From: Escherichia coli
GTDB taxonomy: Bacteria > Pseudomonadota > Gammaproteobacteria > Enterobacterales > Enterobacteriaceae
Direction: 5' to 3' (one strand)
NCBI RefSeq assembly: GCF_048403405.1
Contig: NZ_CP183129.1
Length of the DNA stretch: 64,000 nt
In this document: one piece after another, positions 47,169 through 55,786 of the stretch
Numbering within the stretch: the first letter of the stretch is position 1
Layout: each line of letters starts with the position of its first letter
The notes under the pieces: model-generated
Told to the model about the DNA's origin: nothing
The model's database searches: none
The model's input: the letters and a program-made list of their open reading frames with translations, nothing else
Program-made: the position numbers and the translations under genes

Positions 47169-48490
47169 TGCCTAAACTTGTCACTTGGATGAACAACCAG
47201 CGGGTAGGCGAGTTAACGAAGTTAGCCAATGGCGCGCACACCTTTAAGTATGCACCGGAGTGGTTAGCCAACCGTTATGCCAGACCGTTATCACTTTCGC
47301 TGCCATTGCAGAGGGGGAATATCACCTCTGATGCTGTATTTAACTTCTTCGATAACCTGCTACCCGATAGCCCGATTGTACGTGACCGGATCGTTAAACG
47401 TTATCATGCTAAATCCAGACAACCGTTTGATTTATTGTCAGAAATAGGGCGAGATAGCGTTGGTGCCGTAACGTTATTACCCGAAAATGAAACCATAACG
47501 CGCCCGATAATGGCATGGGAACAGCTCACTGAAGCCAGGCTTGAAGAAGTATTAACGGCTTATAAAGCAGATATCCCTCTGGGCATGATTAGAGAAGAAA
47601 ATGACTTTCGCATCTCGGTTGCTGGCGCGCAGGAGAAGACAGCGCTGCTCAGAATAGGCAATGACTGGTGCATTCCGAAAGGAATAACGCCGACGACGCA
47701 CATCATTAAATTACCGATTGGCGAAATCAGGCAGCCCAATGCGACGCTCGATCTCAGCCAAAGCGTTGATAATGAGTATTACTGTCTGCTGCTGGCGAAA
47801 GAACTTGGGTTGAATGTGCCGGACGCAGAAATCATTAAAGCGGGAAATGTGCGCGCGTTAGCGGTCGAACGTTTTGACAGGCGTTGGAATGCTGAGCGAA
47901 CGGTTTTACTTCGCTTGCCACAGGAGGATATGTGTCAGACATTCGGTTTACCTTCATCGGTGAAATATGAATCAGATGGAGGCCCAGGCATCGCGCGGAT
48001 CATGGCTTTTTTGATGGGGTCCAGCGAGGCGCTGAAAGATCGCTATGATTTTATGAAGTTTCAGGTGTTCCAGTGGTTGATTGGCGCAACGGATGGCCAT
48101 GCAAAAAACTTCTCCGTATTTATTCAGGCTGGCGGCAGTTATCGACTCACGCCATTTTACGACATCATTTCAGCATTTCCGGTATTGGGTGGCGCAGGAA
48201 TACACATCAGCGATCTCAAACTAGCAATGGGGCTTAACGCATCCAAAGGCAAAAAAACGGCAATCGATAAAATTTATCCGCGACATTTTCTGGCGACAGC
48301 AAAGGTGCTGAAATTTCCGGAAGTGCAGATGCATGAAATCCTGAGTGACTTTGCCAGAATGATTCCGGCAGCACTGGATAACGTGAAGACTTCATTACCG
48401 ACAGATTTTCCGGAGAACGTGGTGACGGCAGTTGAAACCAATGTGTTGAGGTTGCACGGCCGGTTAAGCCGAGAATACGGTATTAAGTAA
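47168..48490 (+). CDS. hipA: HipA serine/threonine kinase toxin
   Basis: 440 aa from MPKLVTWMNNQRVGELTKLANGAHTFKYAPEWL...; the ORF track began 19 codons upstream. Confidence 0.95.
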   Translation: MPKLVTWMNNQRVGELTKLANGAHTFKYAPEWLANRYARPLSLSLPLQRGNITSDAVFNFFDNLLPDSPIVRDRIVKRYHAKSRQPFDLLSEIGRDSVGAVTLLPENETITRPIMAWEQLTEARLEEVLTAYKADIPLGMIREENDFRISVAGAQEKTALLRIGNDWCIPKGITPTTHIIKLPIGEIRQPNATLDLSQSVDNEYYCLLLAKELGLNVPDAEIIKAGNVRALAVERFDRRWNAERTVLLRLPQEDMCQTFGLPSSVKYESDGGPGIARIMAFLMGSSEALKDRYDFMKFQVFQWLIGATDGHAKNFSVFIQAGGSYRLTPFYDIISAFPVLGGAGIHISDLKLAMGLNASKGKKTAIDKIYPRHFLATAKVLKFPEVQMHEILSDFARMIPAALDNVKTSLPTDFPENVVTAVETNVLRLHGRLSREYGIK

Positions 48491-48888: not shown

Positions 48889-49436
48889 TTATCGCCCCGT
48901 AGTGGATATCAGAAAATCAATCAGGGCCTTCACTCTTTTCGTTTTACCCGCGTTTTTGGGGTAATAGAGATACACTGGCGGGTAGGTTTTCCAGTAGCTC
49001 TCCATCACCGGAATAAAACGCTCCCTGTCCGGCTGTAACTGCCAGACAGGCTCAAACTTTCTAACTGTATACCCGGATATTGCTGACAGAATTCTGCCAT
49101 CGCAGGCTTAAGAATTAACAGGTAGGCAAAACGCGAGAGCGTAATTCGCACCATCCCAGAGGGCTCCTGATGCTGGTCGCGAATGCTTTCAAGTGAGTTT
49201 TCCAGCGACTCCACCGCCGCAGCGGTCTGTTCCAGCAATAATTGACCGGTTTCCGTCAGCTCTATACGGCGGGTCGTACGCACAAAAAGCGGATGGCCGA
49301 TATACTCTTCCAGCAGCTTTAGTGCATTGCTGACGGAGGGAGGCGTAATTTCCAGTTTCCTTGCGGCTGCCGAAATATTGCCCTCCCGCGCAATGCTCTG
49401 GAAGATGCGAATCTGGTTATAAAGAGCGTTATTCAT
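48889..49436 (-). pseudogene. LysR-family regulator, frameshifted and internally shortened
   Basis: N-terminal 143-aa ORF (49005-49436) has the LysR HTH (ISAAARKLEITPPSVSNALKLLEE) and stops prematurely; a second frame (48889 to about 49075) encodes a LysR-like C-terminus (...KTKRVKALIDFLISTTGR*). Total is about 180 codons against about 300 expected. Confidence 0.55.
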
Positions 49437-49571
49437 AATGTTTTCCTAAGCAATTCTCGCCTGATTATTAAGTACAGTCTAAAAATGCTTAAGTCAATGA
49501 CCCTCTAATCTTCCTGAAATACGCCTCTTATACTTTAGTCTCTTTCTACTACGACCTGAGTTCAGGAGACT

Positions 49572-49883
49572 ATGATGCGAATTTTATGTCTGGATATCCC
49601 TGCCCCTGGAGCATCGCTGGAGAAATATGCTCCGCACCTCAACGCTGAAGCGCTGCACGCCTGGGGATTGTATAAATCAGGCTTCATCCGCGACATCTAC
49701 TTCCGTCAGGACAGACCTGGCGTCGCTATTTTTCTTGAATGTGACTCTGTCGATGAAGCGATGAACGTTATGGCCGAATTCCCGTTGGCAAAAGCAGGCT
49801 TACTAAGCTTCGAGTGTATACCGCTTGGCTCCTTTATTAACTGGGAAAATCTCTTCGCCGATGAATTTAAAAATAAAGAGTGA
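49572..49883 (+). CDS. Small dimeric alpha+beta-barrel protein, muconolactone isomerase-like
   Basis: 103-aa ORF; the pattern R(P)GV-x-FLECDSVDEAMNVMAEFPL resembles the MLI family core (...VFDV-SxEAxH-x-LxxLPL...); AGGAG Shine-Dalgarno upstream. Confidence 0.55.
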   Translation: MMRILCLDIPAPGASLEKYAPHLNAEALHAWGLYKSGFIRDIYFRQDRPGVAIFLECDSVDEAMNVMAEFPLAKAGLLSFECIPLGSFINWENLFADEFKNKE

Positions 49884-49891
49884 GGACCGAT

Positions 49892-50581
49892 ATGAAACCT
49901 GCATATAAACCAGTGCTATGTGTCGTTTCCAGCCATCCGATTAAAGGCGCATCCGGTGTACCAACCGGTTTTTTCCTGGCCGAGCTGACTCATCCGCTGA
50001 AAGTACTGGAAGATGCCGGAATAAAAACAACAATAGCCAGTATTCGCGGGGGGCAGCCACCGGTGGATGGATTTGACCTCAGCGACCCTGTTAACGCCTG
50101 GTACTGGAACGAAACCGATTTTCAGCAGCGCCTGGCAACAACACCTGCGTTATCCGAGCTGAAAGGTGCCGATTACAGCGCAGTTTTCTTTGCAGGTGGT
50201 CATGGGACCATGTGGGATTTCCGTGATAATCAGGATGCCCAGCGTATTATCCGCGAAGTGTATGAAAGTGATGGGATTGTCTCAGCCGTCTGCCACGGGC
50301 CTGCGGCATTGGTTGACGCAAAACTCAGTAGCGGCGAATACCTGATAAAAGGGAAAAATGTGGCGGCCTTTACCAACAAGGAAGAGGAAGAAGTTCACAC
50401 AACAGATGTGGTTCCCTTCCTGCTTGAAACCGCACTTCGCGAGCATGGTGCGCTTTATCATGAAGCTCCAAACTGGTCTGAAAACGTGGTTACCGACGAT
50501 CGCCTTATCACGGGGCAGAATCCCGCTTCAGCACATGGGGTTGGTGTGGCGCTGTTAAATGCACTCCGCCGGACAGCTTAA
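49892..50581 (+). CDS. DJ-1/PfpI-family (class I glutamine amidotransferase-like) protein
   Basis: About 229 aa from MKPAYKPVLCVVSS...; conserved nucleophile-elbow Cys context (AVCHGPAAL); GAGGA Shine-Dalgarno before the ATG at 49892; 8 nt after the previous stop. Confidence 0.8.
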   Translation: MKPAYKPVLCVVSSHPIKGASGVPTGFFLAELTHPLKVLEDAGIKTTIASIRGGQPPVDGFDLSDPVNAWYWNETDFQQRLATTPALSELKGADYSAVFFAGGHGTMWDFRDNQDAQRIIREVYESDGIVSAVCHGPAALVDAKLSSGEYLIKGKNVAAFTNKEEEEVHTTDVVPFLLETALREHGALYHEAPNWSENVVTDDRLITGQNPASAHGVGVALLNALRRTA

Positions 50582-50654
50582 TTAATTCATCGTTACTCAC
50601 CTTACTTGGCCGGTTTAAGTCAGCCACGATCCGGCCTTTTTTCAGGAGCTGAAT

Positions 50655-51602
50655 ATGAAAACACTACCTCCAGTCGCACTAGGTACATGGTCCTGGGGCA
50701 CAGGCTTTGCCGGCGGCGACACCGTCTTTGGTAATCATCTTTCTGATACTCAGATGGCAGAAGTGTTCACTGCGGCCATGAGTAAGGGCCTCAATCTCTG
50801 GGATACCGCAGCAGTATATGGTATGGGGAGTTCCGAGACTGCGCTGGGAGCATTAGTCCGTCAGTTTCCCCGCGAGAACATAATTTTATCCACCAAATTC
50901 ACGCCGCAGATTGCGGACAAGCAGTCTGCGCAGCCTGTCAGCGATATGCTTGAGGCCAGCCTTGGGCGCCTGGGCGTGGACGCGATTGATATCTACTGGA
51001 TCCATAATCCCCTCGACGTCGAAAAATGGACACCAGGACTGATCCCACTTTTACAAAGCGGTAAGGTAAAACGCGTAGGTGTTTCCAACCACAATCTGGC
51101 ACAAATCAGACGCGCCAATGAAATCCTTAACGCTTCCGGTTATTCCCTCAGTGCAGTACAAAATCACTACAGCCTGCTCTATCGCGCTTCTGAAGAGGCC
51201 GGGATCCTTGATTATTGCCGACAAAATAACATCACGTTCTTTGCTTACATGGTCCTGGAGCAAGGCGCGCTCAGTGGTCGTTATGATTCAAATCATCCCA
51301 TGCCTGCCGGGAGTGGCCGGGCCGAAAGTTATAACGCAGTACTGCCGCAGATAGAAAGACTAACCGCCGCCATGAAAAAAATGGGAGCCGAAAGGAATGC
51401 CAGCGTGGCACAGATAGCCATCGCATGGGCTATTGCGAAAGGTACCCTTCCCCTCGTTGGTGCGACTAAAGTCCATCACGTTCTGGACGCCGCCTGCGCT
51501 TCAGACATCCAGTTACGCGATGAGGAAATCATCCTGCTGGAACAACTCGCCGCAGAGACCAGAGTGGATACACGAGGCGCCTGGGAAAAACCGATGGTGT
51601 AA
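50655..51602 (+). CDS. Aldo/keto reductase
   Basis: 315-aa ORF with AKR fold features (WDTAAVYG, IDIYWIHNP, GVSNH). Confidence 0.85.
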   Translation: MKTLPPVALGTWSWGTGFAGGDTVFGNHLSDTQMAEVFTAAMSKGLNLWDTAAVYGMGSSETALGALVRQFPRENIILSTKFTPQIADKQSAQPVSDMLEASLGRLGVDAIDIYWIHNPLDVEKWTPGLIPLLQSGKVKRVGVSNHNLAQIRRANEILNASGYSLSAVQNHYSLLYRASEEAGILDYCRQNNITFFAYMVLEQGALSGRYDSNHPMPAGSGRAESYNAVLPQIERLTAAMKKMGAERNASVAQIAIAWAIAKGTLPLVGATKVHHVLDAACASDIQLRDEEIILLEQLAAETRVDTRGAWEKPMV

Positions 51603-51704: not shown

Positions 51705-52381
51705 ATGAAAATCATTTGCCTCGAAGAACATTATCTCGACAGCGAGTTAGGGCGAGCGTGTATGCCTGTTGCGCTTGAGCAGGCACCTTTCCTTGGCGAC
51801 TGGGGGAAAACCGTCGCTGATGGTCATAATCCTGACCGACTCCCTGCTTTCCCGCTTTAATAAACTGAATGTGCCACTCTATCTTCATCCCGGGTTACCG
51901 CTTAAAAGCGTACAGCAGGCCTACTTCACGGGCTTCAGCGCAGAGGTCAACGCCAGGCTTTCTATGTTTGCCTGGGGCTGGCATCACGAAGCGGGGATCC
52001 ATTTGTTGCGGCTGATGTTATCGGGCGCATTTGATAAATATCCCAACCTGCAGGTAATCAGTGGCCACTGGGGGGAGATGTTACCCTTCTGGCTCCAGCG
52101 TCTTGATGACAGCCTACCACTGGCTGCAACGGGTCTGTCACGCACGCTAACGAGAACCTTCCAGGAACACGTTTACGTTACCCCGTCATATGCTAACACT
52201 GCCGCACTTCCAGTTTATCTACGCGTTAATGGGTGCTGAAAGGATCCTGTTCTCCGTCGATTATCCCTATCAGACCCTGGACGGTGTAAAAACCTTTATA
52301 GACAGTCTGCCCGTCAACAAGGCTGAAAAAGAGGCCATCGCGTTTCGCAATGCAGAACGTTTACTGGGCATCACGGTTTAG
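51705..52381 (+). pseudogene. Amidohydrolase-2 (ACMSD/LigW-like metal-dependent hydrolase/decarboxylase) with at least two frameshifts
   Basis: Three consecutive fragments in different frames: MKIICLEEHY... (51705 to about 51860), ...ISGHWGEMLPFWLQRLDD... (track ORF 51769-52239) and ...FSVDYPYQTLDGVKTFIDSLPVNKAEKEAIAFRNAERLLGI (52190-52381). Confidence 0.5.
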
Positions 52382-52531: not shown

Positions 52532-53104
52532 ATGAAAAATATCCTTGTTATTTCAGGTCATCCTGAGCTTACCCATTCCGTCGCCAATGCCACTATTCTT
52601 GATGAAGTGGAGACCGCCCTTCCCGATGTTGAGATTCGTCGTCTGGACAGGCTCTATCCGGATGGCAAATTCAACATCGCGGCGGAGCAGGAAAGCCTGC
52701 TCAGGGCCGATGTGATTGTCTGGCAGTTCCCTTTTTCCTGGTATGGGCTGCCAGGATTAATGAAAAAATGGCTGGACGAGGTCTTTGTTCACGGCTTCGC
52801 GCATGGCTCAACGGCGAAACTGGGCGGTAAAAAGCTGATCCTCTCCTTTACAACGGGAGCGCCAGAGGAGCTCTATACCGTCGACAGTTTCTTTGGCCAT
52901 ACCATTGAAGAGTATCTAATTCCGTTCGAGACCACAGCAAAACTGTGCAATCTTGAGCTGCTGGAGCCGGTTTATACCTGCGGTATCAGCTATGCCGATC
53001 GGGATGCCGACAAACTCGCGCAGCAAAAAACGCTTGCCTGGGAACACGCTTCAAGGCTTGTCGATCTGCTCAATTCCGTCGTGAATAATCCAGAGGGAGA
53101 ATAA
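52532..53104 (+). CDS. Flavodoxin-like-fold NAD(P)H:quinone oxidoreductase (KefF/KefG/YwrO-like)
   Basis: 190 aa; N-terminus MKNILVISGHPELTHSVANATIL... and the FPFSWYGLPGLMKKWLDEVF block resemble KefG-type quinone reductases. Confidence 0.75.
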   Translation: MKNILVISGHPELTHSVANATILDEVETALPDVEIRRLDRLYPDGKFNIAAEQESLLRADVIVWQFPFSWYGLPGLMKKWLDEVFVHGFAHGSTAKLGGKKLILSFTTGAPEELYTVDSFFGHTIEEYLIPFETTAKLCNLELLEPVYTCGISYADRDADKLAQQKTLAWEHASRLVDLLNSVVNNPEGE

Positions 53105-53106
53105 CA

Positions 53107-54126
53107 ATGCAGTATACCCGGCTCGGTAAAAGTAACTTACTTGTTTCCCGCATCTGCATGGGATGCATGGGGTTTGGCGATCCGTCGACGGGTCAGCATA
53201 GCTGGACGCTGGACGAAACAGCAAGCCGCGACATCATTCGCTATGGCCTTGAAAAGGGCATCAACTTTTACGATACCGCTATAGCCTACCAGAATGGCTC
53301 CAGTGAGCGATACGTTGGCCGGGCATTACGGGAGATGGCGAAACGCGATGATATCGTCCTGGCCACCAAGTTTCTGCCGCGAACCCCCGCACAAATTGCC
53401 GGAGGGATCAGCGGAAAAGAGGCAATCGCTCAATCCCTTGACCAGAGCCTGAAGAATCTGGGGATGGACTATATCGACCTCTACATCTACCACATCTGGG
53501 ATTACAACACGCCCATTATCGACGTGCTTGAAGCGTTATATGCCGCTGTTACTGCTGGCAAAGTACGAGCTGTTGGTATTTCAAACTGCTATGCCTGGCA
53601 GCTGGCGAAGGCGAACGCCCTTGCTGAACGCGAAGGGCTGACGCCCTTTGTTTCCGTACAGAGCCACTACAATCTAATTATGCGCGAAGATGAACGGGAG
53701 CTCTTCGGCCTGTGCACTGAGGATAATATCGCAATGACCCCCTATAGCGCGCTGGCCAGCGGCCGCCTCTCTCGTAAAGAAGGCTATACACGGCGAGCCA
53801 CAGAGGATGACTATGCGCGTGGAAAATATGACAGCACGGCTGAACAGGATCGCAGCATTATTGAGCGTGTAGCCGAACTGGCCGAACGCCATCTGGTGTC
53901 AATGACGGAAATATCTCTCGCTTGGCTGCTGACAAAAGTCACATCACCTGTCGTAGGGGCTACAAAAAAAGCTCATGTCGATGGCGCGGTAAACGCAGTA
54001 AATCTTCAACTAAGTCCGGAGGAAATTCAGTTTCTGGAAGAAACCTACCAGCCGCATGTTCTGACGGGGATCATGGCGCAAAATACGCCGCAAACGAAAG
54101 ATGTTAAGCAGGTCTGGATGCGATAG
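53107..54126 (+). CDS. Aldo/keto reductase (Tas/YdjG-like)
   Basis: 339 aa; AKR motifs (FYDTAIAYQNG, IDLYIYHIWD, GISNC); starts 3 nt after the preceding gene, so probably co-transcribed. Confidence 0.85.
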   Translation: MQYTRLGKSNLLVSRICMGCMGFGDPSTGQHSWTLDETASRDIIRYGLEKGINFYDTAIAYQNGSSERYVGRALREMAKRDDIVLATKFLPRTPAQIAGGISGKEAIAQSLDQSLKNLGMDYIDLYIYHIWDYNTPIIDVLEALYAAVTAGKVRAVGISNCYAWQLAKANALAEREGLTPFVSVQSHYNLIMREDERELFGLCTEDNIAMTPYSALASGRLSRKEGYTRRATEDDYARGKYDSTAEQDRSIIERVAELAERHLVSMTEISLAWLLTKVTSPVVGATKKAHVDGAVNAVNLQLSPEEIQFLEETYQPHVLTGIMAQNTPQTKDVKQVWMR

Positions 54127-54241
54127 CCCTTATTCACTTTTCCTCCTCTCGTCTTTGAGAGCGCCAGTAGCGGTCGGTTACGTTCTTACCAGCACCAGTT
54201 GATCGAACGTCTTAAACAGTAACGTCAGTAAAAAGATCATC

Positions 54242-54967
54242 GTGAAAAAGACTTTTATGCTTTTAATTTGCATGCTAATAAGCAGCCCTGTCTTTGCAAC
54301 AAAACCGGACGCGCCGAATAAGCCGGAGATGAATATCTTCGAGCTCGGCATCAGACCCGATCGGGACAACGACTTTGCAGACGTGGCCAGACAGACGATT
54401 TCCGCTTCGGTTGATCATGAAGCAGGTACACTGGCGATGTATGCCCTGCAACGCAGCGACAATTCAGGTCAGGCATTCATGTTCGAACTCTATGAAAATG
54501 AGCGTGCTTATCGCAAACATCTCAATGCCGCCCCATACAAAGCATTCGCTGCTCGTGCAGCTGACATTATTGACAGGAAGAAGAAAATTACCCTGGAGCC
54601 ACAGTTTCTGGGCGACAAACACATCATACCGAATGAACGAACTATCAATAATCTGGTGATCGTCGAAGTAAAGCCTGAATTTCAGAGCGAATTTAGAAAC
54701 ATCGTCCTTCCTGAAATGGTCGAGTCGCTCAAAGTAGAGAAAGGCGTGTTAGCCATGTATGCCGGTACAGATTCAGAGACTCCAAAACGCTGGTATTTCT
54801 ATGAGATTTACGCCAGTGAGGAGGATTATCAACTGCACCGACAAACGCTGCACTTCCTGGAATACCTCAGGCAAACGGCGCATATGAGCGCCAGGAAGGA
54901 CGCAATCCCGGTAAAACCGGTATTTCTTCGTAACAAAGGCGGAATCAAACAGGAGCCGCAACGTTGA
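54242..54967 (+). CDS. Secreted protein with tandem ABM (antibiotic-biosynthesis-monooxygenase-like) domains
   Basis: 241 aa; N-terminal signal peptide (MLLICMLISSPVFA|TKPD); two repeats of an ABM-like ferredoxin fold (LAMYALQRSDN...FMFELYENERAYRKH and LAMYAGTDSETP...YFYEIYASEEDYQLH). Confidence 0.65.
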   Translation: MKKTFMLLICMLISSPVFATKPDAPNKPEMNIFELGIRPDRDNDFADVARQTISASVDHEAGTLAMYALQRSDNSGQAFMFELYENERAYRKHLNAAPYKAFAARAADIIDRKKKITLEPQFLGDKHIIPNERTINNLVIVEVKPEFQSEFRNIVLPEMVESLKVEKGVLAMYAGTDSETPKRWYFYEIYASEEDYQLHRQTLHFLEYLRQTAHMSARKDAIPVKPVFLRNKGGIKQEPQR

Positions 54968-54982
54968 CCAGTAAGGATTAAC

Positions 54983-55786
54983 ATGAAAAGCGTACTTGCA
55001 GCAGCGGCTATGTCGCTTGTTATTTCTGATTTTGCCAATGCTGAGGAAACAAGAGGTAAAGCTATGATGAAAATAGAACCGTCAGCGATTTCGGAAGCTG
55101 ATATTCGTTCCGTCTCACCGGCTCTCGCGCGCTTTGGTCGCGAAGCTATTACTGAAGATCTGTGGACACGCGACGCCCTCTCACCGAGGGATCGTAGTGT
55201 GGTGACCGTCGCCATGCTGATTGCCCGCAACCAGCCTGCCGAGCTTAAGCACTATATTGACGTCGCTCTCGATAGCGGCGTGACGCCAGCGGAATTATCA
55301 GAAATCATTACCCATCTGGCGTTCTACTCAGGTTGGCCAAATGCAATGTCAGCCGTCAGCGTGACCAAAGCAGTATTTGAAACTCGTGGCGTCACGCCAG
55401 ATGCGCTTCCTGACACTTCTCCGGACCTGCTTCCTCTCAATCAGGAAGCAGAAAAGCAGCGTTCAGAGACAGTGGAAAAAAATGTTGGCCGAATATCTCC
55501 AGGCTTGGTTAAATTTACTGCTGACCCACTGTTCCTGGATCTCTGGCAAAGACCCGCGCTAACCCCCCGTGATAGAAGCCTGATTACGGTCAGCGCGTTA
55601 ATCGCATCTGGACAGAGCGCGCAGATTGGCTATCACCTTAACAGAGCGATGGATAATGGACTTTCTGCTGAGGAAGCTGGGGAGATCGTTACCCAAGCCG
55701 CGTTTTACGCTGGCTGGCCAAACGCATTTACCGCTGCTCCGGTTGTGGGAGAGGTGCTAAACAATCGATCATCGAGTAAAAGGTAA
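54983..55786 (+). CDS. Secreted protein with tandem carboxymuconolactone-decarboxylase (CMD/AhpD-like) domains
   Basis: 267 aa; signal peptide (MKSVLAAAAMSLVISDFANA); two CMD-like repeats (LSPRDRSVVTVAMLIARNQ...HLAFYSGWPNA and LTPRDRSLITVSALIASGQ...QAAFYAGWPNA). Confidence 0.7.
   Translation: MKSVLAAAAMSLVISDFANAEETRGKAMMKIEPSAISEADIRSVSPALARFGREAITEDLWTRDALSPRDRSVVTVAMLIARNQPAELKHYIDVALDSGVTPAELSEIITHLAFYSGWPNAMSAVSVTKAVFETRGVTPDALPDTSPDLLPLNQEAEKQRSETVEKNVGRISPGLVKFTADPLFLDLWQRPALTPRDRSLITVSALIASGQSAQIGYHLNRAMDNGLSAEEAGEIVTQAAFYAGWPNAFTAAPVVGEVLNNRSSSKR

Follow-up and report, generated by a model that had tools for sequence, protein, structure and literature searches.

A small MLI/YciI-like protein gene and a DJ-1/PfpI gene in a modular, putatively LysR-controlled operon of Escherichia coli

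Genes and features of the locus

We analyzed a 64,000-nt stretch of an Escherichia coli contig (NZ_CP183129.1), here called the window, in which a short ORF lies immediately upstream of a DJ-1/PfpI-superfamily gene (Table 1). RefSeq starts the short ORF at its second ATG (49575), giving a protein of 102 aa (WP_001221046.1); the sequence AGGAG lies 7 nt upstream of the first ATG, and the stop codon is a TGA (49881–49883). Compared with enterobacterial orthologs, the ORF had a dN/dS of 0.03–0.13, with most changes at third codon positions. We found 400 homologs of its product and 1385 cluster representatives at E ≤ 0.001, and homologs at 60%–70% identity were present in alpha-, beta-, and gammaproteobacteria. 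The low dN/dS and this broad set of homologs establish the small ORF as a genuine, constrained gene, beyond chance.

Table 1. Positions of the genes and sequence features discussed, numbered from the first letter of the window
Feature	Position	Strand	Basis or remark
LysR-family regulator gene, remnant, divergent	49005..49436	-	HTH_1 1.4e-22 and start of LysR_substrate (Pfam)
Divergent intergenic control region (putative)	49437..49571	.	Regulatory role inferred from LysR layout
Small ORF	49572..49883	+	103 aa counted from first ATG
Junction TGAggaccgatATG	49881..49894	+	Small-ORF stop, overlapping Shine-Dalgarno (GAGG), 8-nt gap, DJ-1 start codon
DJ-1/PfpI-superfamily gene, Hsp31/YDR533C (glyoxalase III) class, 229 aa	49892..50581	+	PF01965
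Hairpin GGCCGG-N17-CCGGCC then U6, between DJ-1 and AKR genes	50608..50642	+	
Aldo/keto reductase (AKR), next cistron	50655..51602	+	PF00248, 2.7e-57
Amidohydro_2 (LigW / gamma-resorcylate decarboxylase-type) gene fragments	51769..52381	+	RefSeq: three short CDS
KefF/MdaB-like Flavodoxin_2 NAD(P)H oxidoreductase, second AKR, double-ABM, double-CMD proteins	52532..55786	+	

The LysR gene retains the HTH and residues 1–126, followed by a frameshift; compared with the 900-bp gene (299 aa) of strain 4621, it has a 352-bp deletion after position 49057. Because this deletion breaks the regulator gene, regulated expression of the operon has probably been lost in the window strain. The intergenic region has an imperfect inverted repeat (49447–49463 / 49475–49491), and a scan of the divergent region (49437–49571) for the sigma-70 consensus returned no promoter. 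The hairpin downstream from the DJ-1 gene (MFE −18.9 kcal/mol, z −1.6) may act as a weak terminator or attenuator; owing to its long loop, it went unflagged in a terminator scan.

The best NCBIfam match of the aldo/keto reductase was a YdjG-type methylglyoxal reductase, with a score far under the cutoff, and an AKR gene also comes after DJ-1 at enterobacterial loci. An intact ortholog of the fragmented Amidohydro_2 gene, taken from related operons, matched PF04909 (9.6e-33), PDB 3nur (2.5e-68), and LigW (∼1e-42). The genes at 52532–55786 likewise recur in related loci.

Family assignment of the two proteins

A preliminary description of this DNA had read the downstream gene as DJ-1/PfpI and its product as glyoxalase-like, and both assignments held up. 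PF01965 (DJ-1_PfpI) matched at 60 bits (cutoff 26.6), and the sequence places the protein in the glyoxalase III (Hsp31/YDR533C) class. It aligned end to end with PDB entries 4p5p (1.9e-48), 1u9c (4.4e-41), yeast YDR533C/Hsp31 (1qvv; 5.6e-29), and Candida Glx3 (4lru; 1.4e-27); the CHG motif and the FT-x-x-EE stretch with the triad Glu were in register. Glu31, Cys134, His135, and Glu164/165 were invariant across 39 orthologs, and the triad is Cys134–His135–Glu165; the class structures share with the protein the Cys-His of the nucleophile elbow, the N-terminal Glu, and the Glu of the triad. Orthology to E. coli HchA was ruled out by the score of the equivalog model NF003168 (66.7 bits; cutoff 365) and by the absence of the N-terminal extension, making this a paralogous class. 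What DJ-1/Hsp31-class proteins act on physiologically is disputed; glyoxalase, deglycase, and esterase/anhydride hydrolase activities have been proposed.

The same description had called the small protein muconolactone isomerase (MLI)-like. The isomerase-type (MLI/YciI) fold stood; the MIase model did not match, and YciI proved equally close. In the AlphaFold model (mean pLDDT 91), the protein has a predicted ferredoxin-like beta-alpha-beta-beta-alpha-beta fold with a C-terminal helix, which agrees with MLI (∼96 aa) and also with YciI. Of the two Pfam models named for checking the pair, DJ-1_PfpI matched its protein, whereas MIase (PF02426) did not match the small protein even with the threshold relaxed to E ≤ 10; it matched 49/79 relatives weakly (E ≤ 1, best 2.4e-8). 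The YCII model (PF03795) gave a partial match below the cutoff (12.3 bits, cutoff 24; E 0.25) and weak matches to 59 of the 79 relatives (best 2.1e-6). There was no usable match to the small protein among the Pfam and NCBIfam models, and a PDB search with the single sequence returned noise only.

Profile comparisons point in two directions. In hhalign, the family aligned with MLI/ClcF (probability 69%, E 4.4e-5), with an MLI profile that is shallow, having been built from homologs at ≥84% identity only; hmmsearch alignments to MLI were individually weak (E 0.5–1.1). The hhalign register pairs E25 with E27, G36 with G38, R39 with R41, Y42 with W44, E55 with D57, and P70 with P72. The MLI-side residues are all invariant in MLI (within the shallow profile), and their family counterparts each predominate at their columns, being present in 64–78 of 79 members. 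The family's conserved residues are E25, W30, R39, Y42, R44, D46, E55, and P70, with E25 and R39 near-invariant (78/79 and 77/79, respectively). These two fall on the catalytic Glu27 and conserved Arg41 of MLI in both the hmmsearch and hhalign registers, the alignments being weak in each. PDB 3zo7, a fold-search match, is the E27A form of ClcF with substrate bound. Because the alignments to MLI are weak (by hmmsearch, and by hhalign against the shallow profile), the equivalence of E25 to the MLI catalytic Glu is suggestive.

On the YciI side, the closest known proteins are HI0828 (1mwq) and TftG, a 5-chlorohydroxyhydroquinone dehydrochlorinase (4lbh). The C-terminal half of the small protein aligned with TftG (E-x-ES...P-x-x-KAGL; hmmsearch E 0.036). 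A His/Asp pair has been proposed as the YCII active site in TftG and HI0828; H21 of the small protein is kept in the close subfamily only (<60% of the broad family), and the Asp of the TftG DPF motif is aligned with Phe69. Judged by predicted fold and profile comparisons, the small protein appears equally near MLI/ClcF and YciI/TftG, and "MLI-like" is valid for fold and profile only. We place it in the dimeric alpha+beta-barrel superfamily, as a member of an un-modeled family of the MIase/YCII branch. The family comprises ∼1400 clusters at 50% identity, yet it has no Pfam or NCBIfam model. Some members bear signal peptides or are tandem duplicates, and the family is therefore not bound to one cytoplasmic pathway.

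Thousands of NCBI and UniProt records name the small protein "superoxide dismutase" (SOD), and an SOD that shields quinone-reductase hydroquinones from autoxidation would be conceivable beside flavoprotein genes. These names are the sole evidence, and the reading is extremely improbable. No SOD family appeared in the Pfam and NCBIfam scans of the small protein (E ≤ 10) or of its 79 relatives; the ferredoxin-like fold is unlike any known SOD fold, and no SOD structure occurred in either list of fold-search matches. The family has no conserved His/Cys metal-ligand set, its conserved residues being Glu, Arg, Asp, Trp, and Pro. Current RefSeq calls the same protein "hypothetical protein," newer records list it as "YciI family protein," and we found no support for the SOD name in the literature searched. 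We reject the SOD identity, which has neither fold, HMM, nor ligand support; the widely propagated label is apparently baseless and merits correction.

Junction and neighborhood conservation

The preliminary description had placed the end of a 103-aa ORF 8 nt before the DJ-1 start codon and had suggested translational coupling. We confirmed the coordinates and the spacing: the DJ-1 ATG (49892) follows the end of the small ORF (49883) by 8 nt, and its Shine-Dalgarno sequence (TGAGGA, 49881–49886) overlaps the stop codon; an in-frame GTG at 49880, if used as the start instead, would itself overlap the stop. This geometry is typical of what would be expected for translational coupling. It was found in the window and in Enterobacterales, but it is neither conserved elsewhere nor specific to DJ-1. 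At 11 other enterobacterial loci, the small gene is followed by a gap of 7–14 nt or an ATGA overlap, whichever gene comes next. Tight spacing between the small gene and DJ-1 was confined to Enterobacterales; elsewhere, the two are separated by 32–414 nt or by a whole gene. In Klebsiella and Kosakonia, where DJ-1 is absent from the locus, the small gene has an equally tight junction with a KefF-like flavoprotein gene. The tight spacing is thus not a conserved requirement of the pair and probably reflects operon compaction typical of Enterobacterales.

We surveyed the neighborhood of the small gene in 80 species, using family HMM searches on six-frame ORFs. A DJ-1 ortholog lay downstream on the same strand in 55/80 species, was found on the opposite strand only in two, and was missing within about 6 kb in 23. 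Co-occurrence of the two genes in other genomes, on which the proposed pairing hinged, was thus borne out, and plasmid records agree: the DJ-1 subclade (≥60% identity) occurred in 90 records and the small gene in 99, matching, whereas DJ-1 paralogs at <56% identity occurred without the small gene. Same-strand pairing was kept across alpha-, beta-, and gammaproteobacteria at 57%–64% DJ-1 identity. Many soil- and plant-associated bacteria carry the pair. In 25 species, a gene was interposed between the small gene and DJ-1, encoding a Zn-ADH or a dienelactone-hydrolase (DLH)-like protein; the DLH-like gene directly followed the small gene at eight loci.

Other neighbors were similarly recurrent. 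In 72/80 species, a divergent LysR gene lay no more than 1.2 kb from the small gene, a WrbA-like or KefF-like flavoprotein gene adjoined it in 50/80, and DJ-1 was followed by a LigW-like Amidohydro_2 gene in 40/80. Annotated examples of the operon occur on a Ralstonia megaplasmid and on pRiA4, where stops and starts overlap. Elsewhere, DJ-1 paralogs also lie among genes for aldehyde/electrophile detoxification. The island that carries the pair was present in 483/5426 complete E. coli genomes.

These data show an operon transcribed divergently from a LysR gene and spread horizontally, in which the two ORFs are consecutive cistrons. Its content is modular: an FMN quinone reductase, the small protein, an ADH or hydrolase, DJ-1, a LigW-type decarboxylase, and AKRs. 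Because the coupling is lineage-specific and the small gene is also joined to the flavoprotein gene, the pair is a fragment of this larger modular, putatively LysR-controlled operon and not a stand-alone two-gene system. The preliminary description did not recognize the pairing as a described operon, and we likewise found no description of it in the literature searched; a Paraburkholderia review mentions Hsp31 only generically.

Interpretation and comparison with known systems

We favor, with a probability of roughly 55%, a reading in which the operon encodes co-regulated enzymes for electrophile, quinone, and phenolic detoxification under the LysR regulator and not an obligate complex. These enzymes would disarm reactive electrophiles (for example, quinones, aldehydes, or 2-oxoaldehydes) and phenolic acids. 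The small protein would be a small acid-base enzyme, in which Glu25, aligned with the ClcF Glu27 that was mutated to Ala in the substrate-bound structure, may serve as proton shuttle, with Arg39 and Arg44 holding an anionic or carbonyl substrate. Candidate reactions are a proton-shift isomerization, a tautomerization, or an elimination, on a cyclic enone, butenolide, or (hydro)quinone. The DJ-1 protein would act as a glutathione-independent glyoxalase III-type hydratase or hydrolase. The neighboring enzymes are generic and do not define the substrate class. In E. coli, the 8-nt spacer and the Shine-Dalgarno sequence over the stop codon should couple translation. We infer that the two proteins are linked functionally by membership in one regulon or pathway governed by the LysR regulator rather than by forming an obligate 1:1 complex.

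A closer partnership, in which the small protein serves DJ-1 specifically as accessory subunit, activator, or chaperone and translational coupling matches their amounts, would fit the 8-nt junction with its Shine-Dalgarno sequence over the stop, the nearly co-extensive distribution of the DJ-1 subclade and the small gene in plasmid records, and the same-strand operon arrangement in 55/80 species. We nevertheless consider it improbable. The 23 species without a nearby DJ-1 gene and the two with DJ-1 on the opposite strand only argue against it, as do the 25 with an interposed gene, and the tight spacing is lineage-specific, with the flavoprotein gene joined just as tightly where DJ-1 is absent. 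We also modeled the two proteins with AlphaFold as a single linked 1:1 chain on a paired alignment of 39 paired rows, judged by pTM. The pTM of 0.63 and the widely varying models are as expected of two independent domains, a weak negative from a weak test; an obligate complex of the two proteins was not supported by this run. At the opposite extreme, the adjacency could be incidental, with unrelated genes packed on an accessory island, in keeping with the island's presence in just 483 of the 5426 complete E. coli genomes and with the modular operon content. The neighborhood counts already contradict this, since the same-strand association extends across three proteobacterial classes at 57%–64% DJ-1 identity and is specific to one DJ-1 subclade, and we give incidental adjacency next to no credence.

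The small protein may instead be non-enzymatic, a YciI/Dabb-type binding or stress protein that buffers or presents a ligand (a quinone or phenolic, perhaps the co-inducer of LysR). In favor of this, catalysis has not been demonstrated for most YciI-like proteins, secreted family members exist, and the strongest neighborhood link is to the LysR gene (72/80), with the small gene first or second in the operon. This seems unlikely, as two carboxylates and one arginine are near-invariant (77–78/79) at positions that align with MLI active-site residues, which fits catalysis better, and every other operon partner is an enzyme. A more specific proposal, and a doubtful one, is that a new enzyme family in the MLI/YciI supergroup and a dedicated DJ-1 subclade form a two-step module: Glu25-dependent proton-shift isomerization of a toxic butenolide, lactone, or quinone-derived electrophile would be followed by hydrolysis or hydration of the product by the Cys134 enzyme. 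Such a module would parallel MLI and then enol-lactone hydrolase of the beta-ketoadipate pathway; if true, this DJ-1 class would natively act on a plant- or microbe-derived cyclic electrophile and not on methylglyoxal.

The consistent company of the DJ-1 subclade (a quinone reductase, an MLI/YciI-like protein, a LigW-type decarboxylase, a YahK-type aldehyde reductase, and one LysR regulator) provides a concrete, testable genomic lead. The genomic context hints at the true substrates of this DJ-1 subgroup, and the operon could point to a native DJ-1 pathway in plant- and soil-associated bacteria.

The likeness of the small protein to the MLI CatC (muconolactone Delta-isomerase, 1mli) and to ClcF (5-chloromuconolactone dehalogenase/isomerase; 3znj, 3zo7) lies in the E/G/R/aromatic/acidic/P columns superposed by the profile alignment, at an identity of only 14%–16%. 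Its gene adjoins a divergent LysR gene, as catC adjoins catR in the cat operon. Unlike the catechol/beta-ketoadipate pathway, however, its neighbors encode quinone reductases, ADH, AKRs, DJ-1, and a LigW-like decarboxylase, and neither catA, catB, nor pcaD was among the recurrent neighbors at the 80 small-gene loci. In the tft pathway, TftG acts on a hydroquinone and the quinone product is then reduced, a setting that resembles the flavoprotein context of the small gene. The operon as a whole can be likened to LysR-regulated electrophile/quinone/aldehyde stress clusters (WrbA, KefF/MdaB, YahK, AKR, and glyoxalase genes). What distinguishes it from them is the combination, not found in the literature searched, of an MLI/YciI-like gene, a specific DJ-1 subclade, and a LigW-type decarboxylase, and these operon partners also set the DJ-1 subclade apart from other Hsp31-class proteins. 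Common to the operon and such clusters are FMN_red, Flavodoxin_2, Zn-ADH, AKR, ABM, and CMD proteins together with a divergent LysR gene.

The small gene and its family

On rereading both ORFs, we found the coordinates of the preliminary description and its 8-nt gap between the small ORF and the DJ-1 gene to be correct; the DJ-1 ribosome-binding site is superimposed on the stop codon of the small ORF (TGAGGA). Judged by its conservation, the small ORF is a real gene, because dN/dS against enterobacterial orthologues is 0.03–0.13 (changes mostly at third positions), a protein search returned at least 400 homologues, and a profile search of the family reached 1385 cluster representatives (E ≤ 0.001). 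Homologues in the protein search were 60%–70% identical in Rhizobium, Burkholderia, Duganella, Pseudomonas, and Xanthomonas, and even in Archangium and an acidobacterial MAG.

Pfam and NCBIfam scans of the small protein matched no model (top, YCII; E 0.25, 12 bits), and a PDB sequence search returned only noise. An AlphaFold model built with 24 homologues was confident (pLDDT 91), with the topology beta1-alpha1-beta2-beta3-alpha2-beta4 plus a C-terminal helix. Its fold matches were the 5-chloromuconolactone isomerase/dehalogenase ClcF (E 1.2e-5, TM 0.72; second figure 11.0), TftG (E 3e-5; second figure 10.6), the YciI protein HI0828 (E 1e-4; second figure 11.1), PA1349 (E 1.2e-3; second figure 9.3), and muconolactone isomerase (MLI) 1mli (E 3e-3). 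Searching the PDB with a profile of 79 family members gave sub-threshold matches to some of the same proteins (TftG, 0.036; 1mli, 0.51; ClcF, 1.1). An hhalign comparison with an MLI/ClcF alignment (69% probability, E 4.4e-5, 64 columns) placed conserved family residues on invariant MLI/ClcF residues: E25 (78/79 members) on E27, the position changed to trap substrate in PDB 3zo7; G36 (64/79) on G38; R39 (77/79) on R41; Y42 (68/79) on W44; E55 (78/79) on D57; and P70 (76/79) on P72. Weak Pfam matches to YCII in 59/79 members and to MIase in 49/79 place the family, by sequence, between the two. The label "MLI-like" thus holds at the superfamily level; the protein falls outside PF02426 and is equally YciI-like.

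Tandem-duplicated two-domain proteins occur in the wider family, as do members with signal-peptide or lipoprotein-like N-termini, some of which therefore probably work outside the cytoplasm. A partial "hypothetical protein" attributed to the fungus Astraeus odoratus, which shares 98% identity with the small protein of E. coli, continues in frame into DJ-1 residues; it looks like enterobacterial contamination of the fungal assembly, with a deletion fusing both genes.

Very many NCBI/GenBank and UniProt records name this family superoxide dismutase (SOD), for example at the Ralstonia megaplasmid and pRiA4 loci (6001–6300 in each). In current RefSeq the E. coli protein of identical sequence is a "hypothetical protein", and RefSeq names for the family now switch between this and "YciI family protein", which some recent records carry. 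No SOD model in Pfam or NCBIfam matches, the fold is unlike SOD, no metal-ligand set is conserved in the family, and we found no paper backing the name in the searched literature; we therefore regard the name as an annotation error that has been propagated.

Pairing with one DJ-1 subclade

The DJ-1 ORF matches PF01965 (60 bits). Its nearest solved structures, 4p5p (1.9e-48), 1u9c, yeast YDR533C/Hsp31, and Candida Glx3, align end to end; the protein is much farther from human DJ-1 and from E. coli HchA. Across 39 orthologues there is no variation in the Cys134-His135 nucleophile elbow, in Glu31, or in the triad Glu (E164/E165), which lines up with that of the yeast protein. Together with the nearest structures, these residues mark the ORF, on sequence grounds, as an Hsp31/YDR533C-class, glyoxalase-III-type protein. 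HchA identity was rejected (NF003168, 66.7 against a cutoff of 365).

We scanned contigs once, with one genome per species, yielding 80 loci that encode the small protein, and ran HMMs built for recurrent neighbour families on their six-frame ORFs. The pairing recurs: a DJ-1 orthologue lies downstream on the same strand in 55/80 species, directly adjoining in 30 and separated by one gene in 25, this being a YahK-like zinc alcohol dehydrogenase (ADH) or a dienelactone-hydrolase-like (DLH-like) alpha/beta hydrolase gene. Orthologues outside Enterobacterales are 57%–64% identical. A divergent LysR gene stands within 1.2 kb of the small gene in 72/80 species, a WrbA-like (FMN_red) or KefF-like (Flavodoxin_2) flavoprotein gene directly adjoins it in 50/80, and an Amidohydro_2 gene of the LigW/gamma-resorcylate/2,3-dihydroxybenzoate decarboxylase subfamily (PDB 3nur, 2.5e-68) follows DJ-1 in 40/80.

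In the reverse direction, DJ-1 at ≥60% identity in a plasmid collection (90 records) tracks the small gene, which is present in 99 records, for the most part from Ralstonia and Rhizobium. More distant paralogues (≤55% identity; 123 records in Sinorhizobium, 214 in Acinetobacter) are not accompanied by the small gene there, and such paralogues belong to different clusters dealing with aldehydes and electrophiles. Given both directions, the co-occurrence is genuine and specific to a single DJ-1 subclade, an association that, in line with the preliminary description, appears undescribed in the searched literature.

The operon is carried on the Rhizobium rhizogenes Ri plasmid pRiA4 (flavodoxin-small gene-ADH-DJ-1-amidohydrolase) and on the megaplasmid of Ralstonia solanacearum (LysR, followed on the other strand by small gene-ADH-DJ-1-amidohydrolase-ABM with overlapping stops and starts). 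This carriage fits a role in handling plant-derived compounds.

Tight coupling did not hold up as a feature of the pair: gaps of 7–14 nt and ATGA overlaps are restricted to Enterobacterales, whereas adjoining pairs elsewhere are 32–414 nt apart. In Klebsiella pneumoniae and Kosakonia, which lack the DJ-1 gene at this locus, the KefF-like gene follows the small gene just as closely (8 nt, ATGA). An AlphaFold run on the two proteins fused by a linker, with 39 paired rows, yielded a pTM of 0.63 and model pLDDT of 65.7–83.6; two independent domains would give the same, and the result is weak negative evidence. Together with 23 species having no DJ-1 gene within ~6 kb and two more having it only on the opposite strand, this argues against an obligate complex.

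State of the E. coli copy

The segment 48900–51700 is matched at ≥99% identity in 483/5426 complete E. coli genomes and is therefore an accessory island of the chromosome; the detoxification cluster lies within a variable region found in only ~9% of them. Strain 4621 has the order lsrK, ECSE_1600-family autotransporter, hipBA, LysR regulator (opposite strand), WP_001221046.1 (the small protein, named "hypothetical protein"), WP_000801313.1 (DJ-1, "type 1 glutamine amidotransferase domain-containing protein"), aldo/keto reductase (AKR), amidohydrolase fragments, NAD(P)H oxidoreductase, second AKR, quinol-monooxygenase-like protein, and CMD-family protein.

Features of the window around the small gene
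Feature	Position	Strand	Remark
Autotransporter and hipBA	41271-48490	+	directly upstream; 1806-aa ECSE_1600-family protein, toxin–antitoxin pair
LysR gene	49005-49436	-	truncated
Small ORF	49572-49883	+	103 aa from first ATG; RefSeq start, second ATG 49575; TGA 49881-49883
DJ-1 ORF	49892-50581	+	ATG 49892
Hairpin	50608-50642	+	GGCCGG-N17-CCGGCC + U6, GC-rich; between DJ-1 stop and AKR start
Amidohydro_2	51769-52381	+	LigW/gamma-resorcylate decarboxylase-type; three short CDS in RefSeq
Double-ABM protein	54242-54967	+	cluster end
Double-CMD protein	54983-55786	+	cluster end

Compared with strain 4621, the window LysR gene has a 352-bp frameshifting deletion after 49057 and keeps only residues 1–126 with the HTH, so regulated expression of the operon has probably been lost in this strain. 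In E. coli generally the Amidohydro_2 gene is broken up, and Rahnella, Pantoea, Serratia, Rhizobium, and Ralstonia have it intact. The hairpin, missed by a consensus terminator scan for its long loop, could be a weak terminator or attenuator setting the small gene and DJ-1 apart as a sub-unit. Because of these three features, the E. coli version appears to be a decaying form of an operon that plant-associated relatives retain intact. The double-ABM and double-CMD proteins have hydrophobic, signal-peptide-like N-termini (MKKTFMLLICMLISSPVFA..., MKSVLAAAAMSLVISDFANA...), suggesting that they are periplasmic, unlike the cytoplasmic enzymes upstream.

Proposed role and known systems

The operon, arranged under a divergent LysR gene, encodes detoxification enzymes of reductive and hydrolytic type. 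Among its products are a Cys-His-Glu DJ-1 protein and a protein of MLI/YciI fold in which a Glu/Arg/Glu set is conserved. By analogy with MLI, ClcF, and TftG, the small protein may be an acid-base catalyst (isomerase, tautomerase, or eliminase) with a cyclic enone, a butenolide, or a (hydro)quinone as its substrate, and DJ-1 would hydrate or hydrolyse a reactive carbonyl. The two would share a single regulon for electrophile or phenolic stress, typical of Proteobacteria associated with plants and soil. A DLH-like hydrolase, CMD-family proteins, and a LigW-type decarboxylase recur in the cluster and give it a leaning towards aromatic compounds or lactones. No Pfam or NCBIfam model covers the small-protein family, which is also uncharacterised and wrongly named. 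Nothing here is categorically new, since the fold families, the DJ-1 class, and the logic of LysR-controlled operons are known already; the association with one DJ-1 subclade offers a testable handle on the function of that DJ-1 class.
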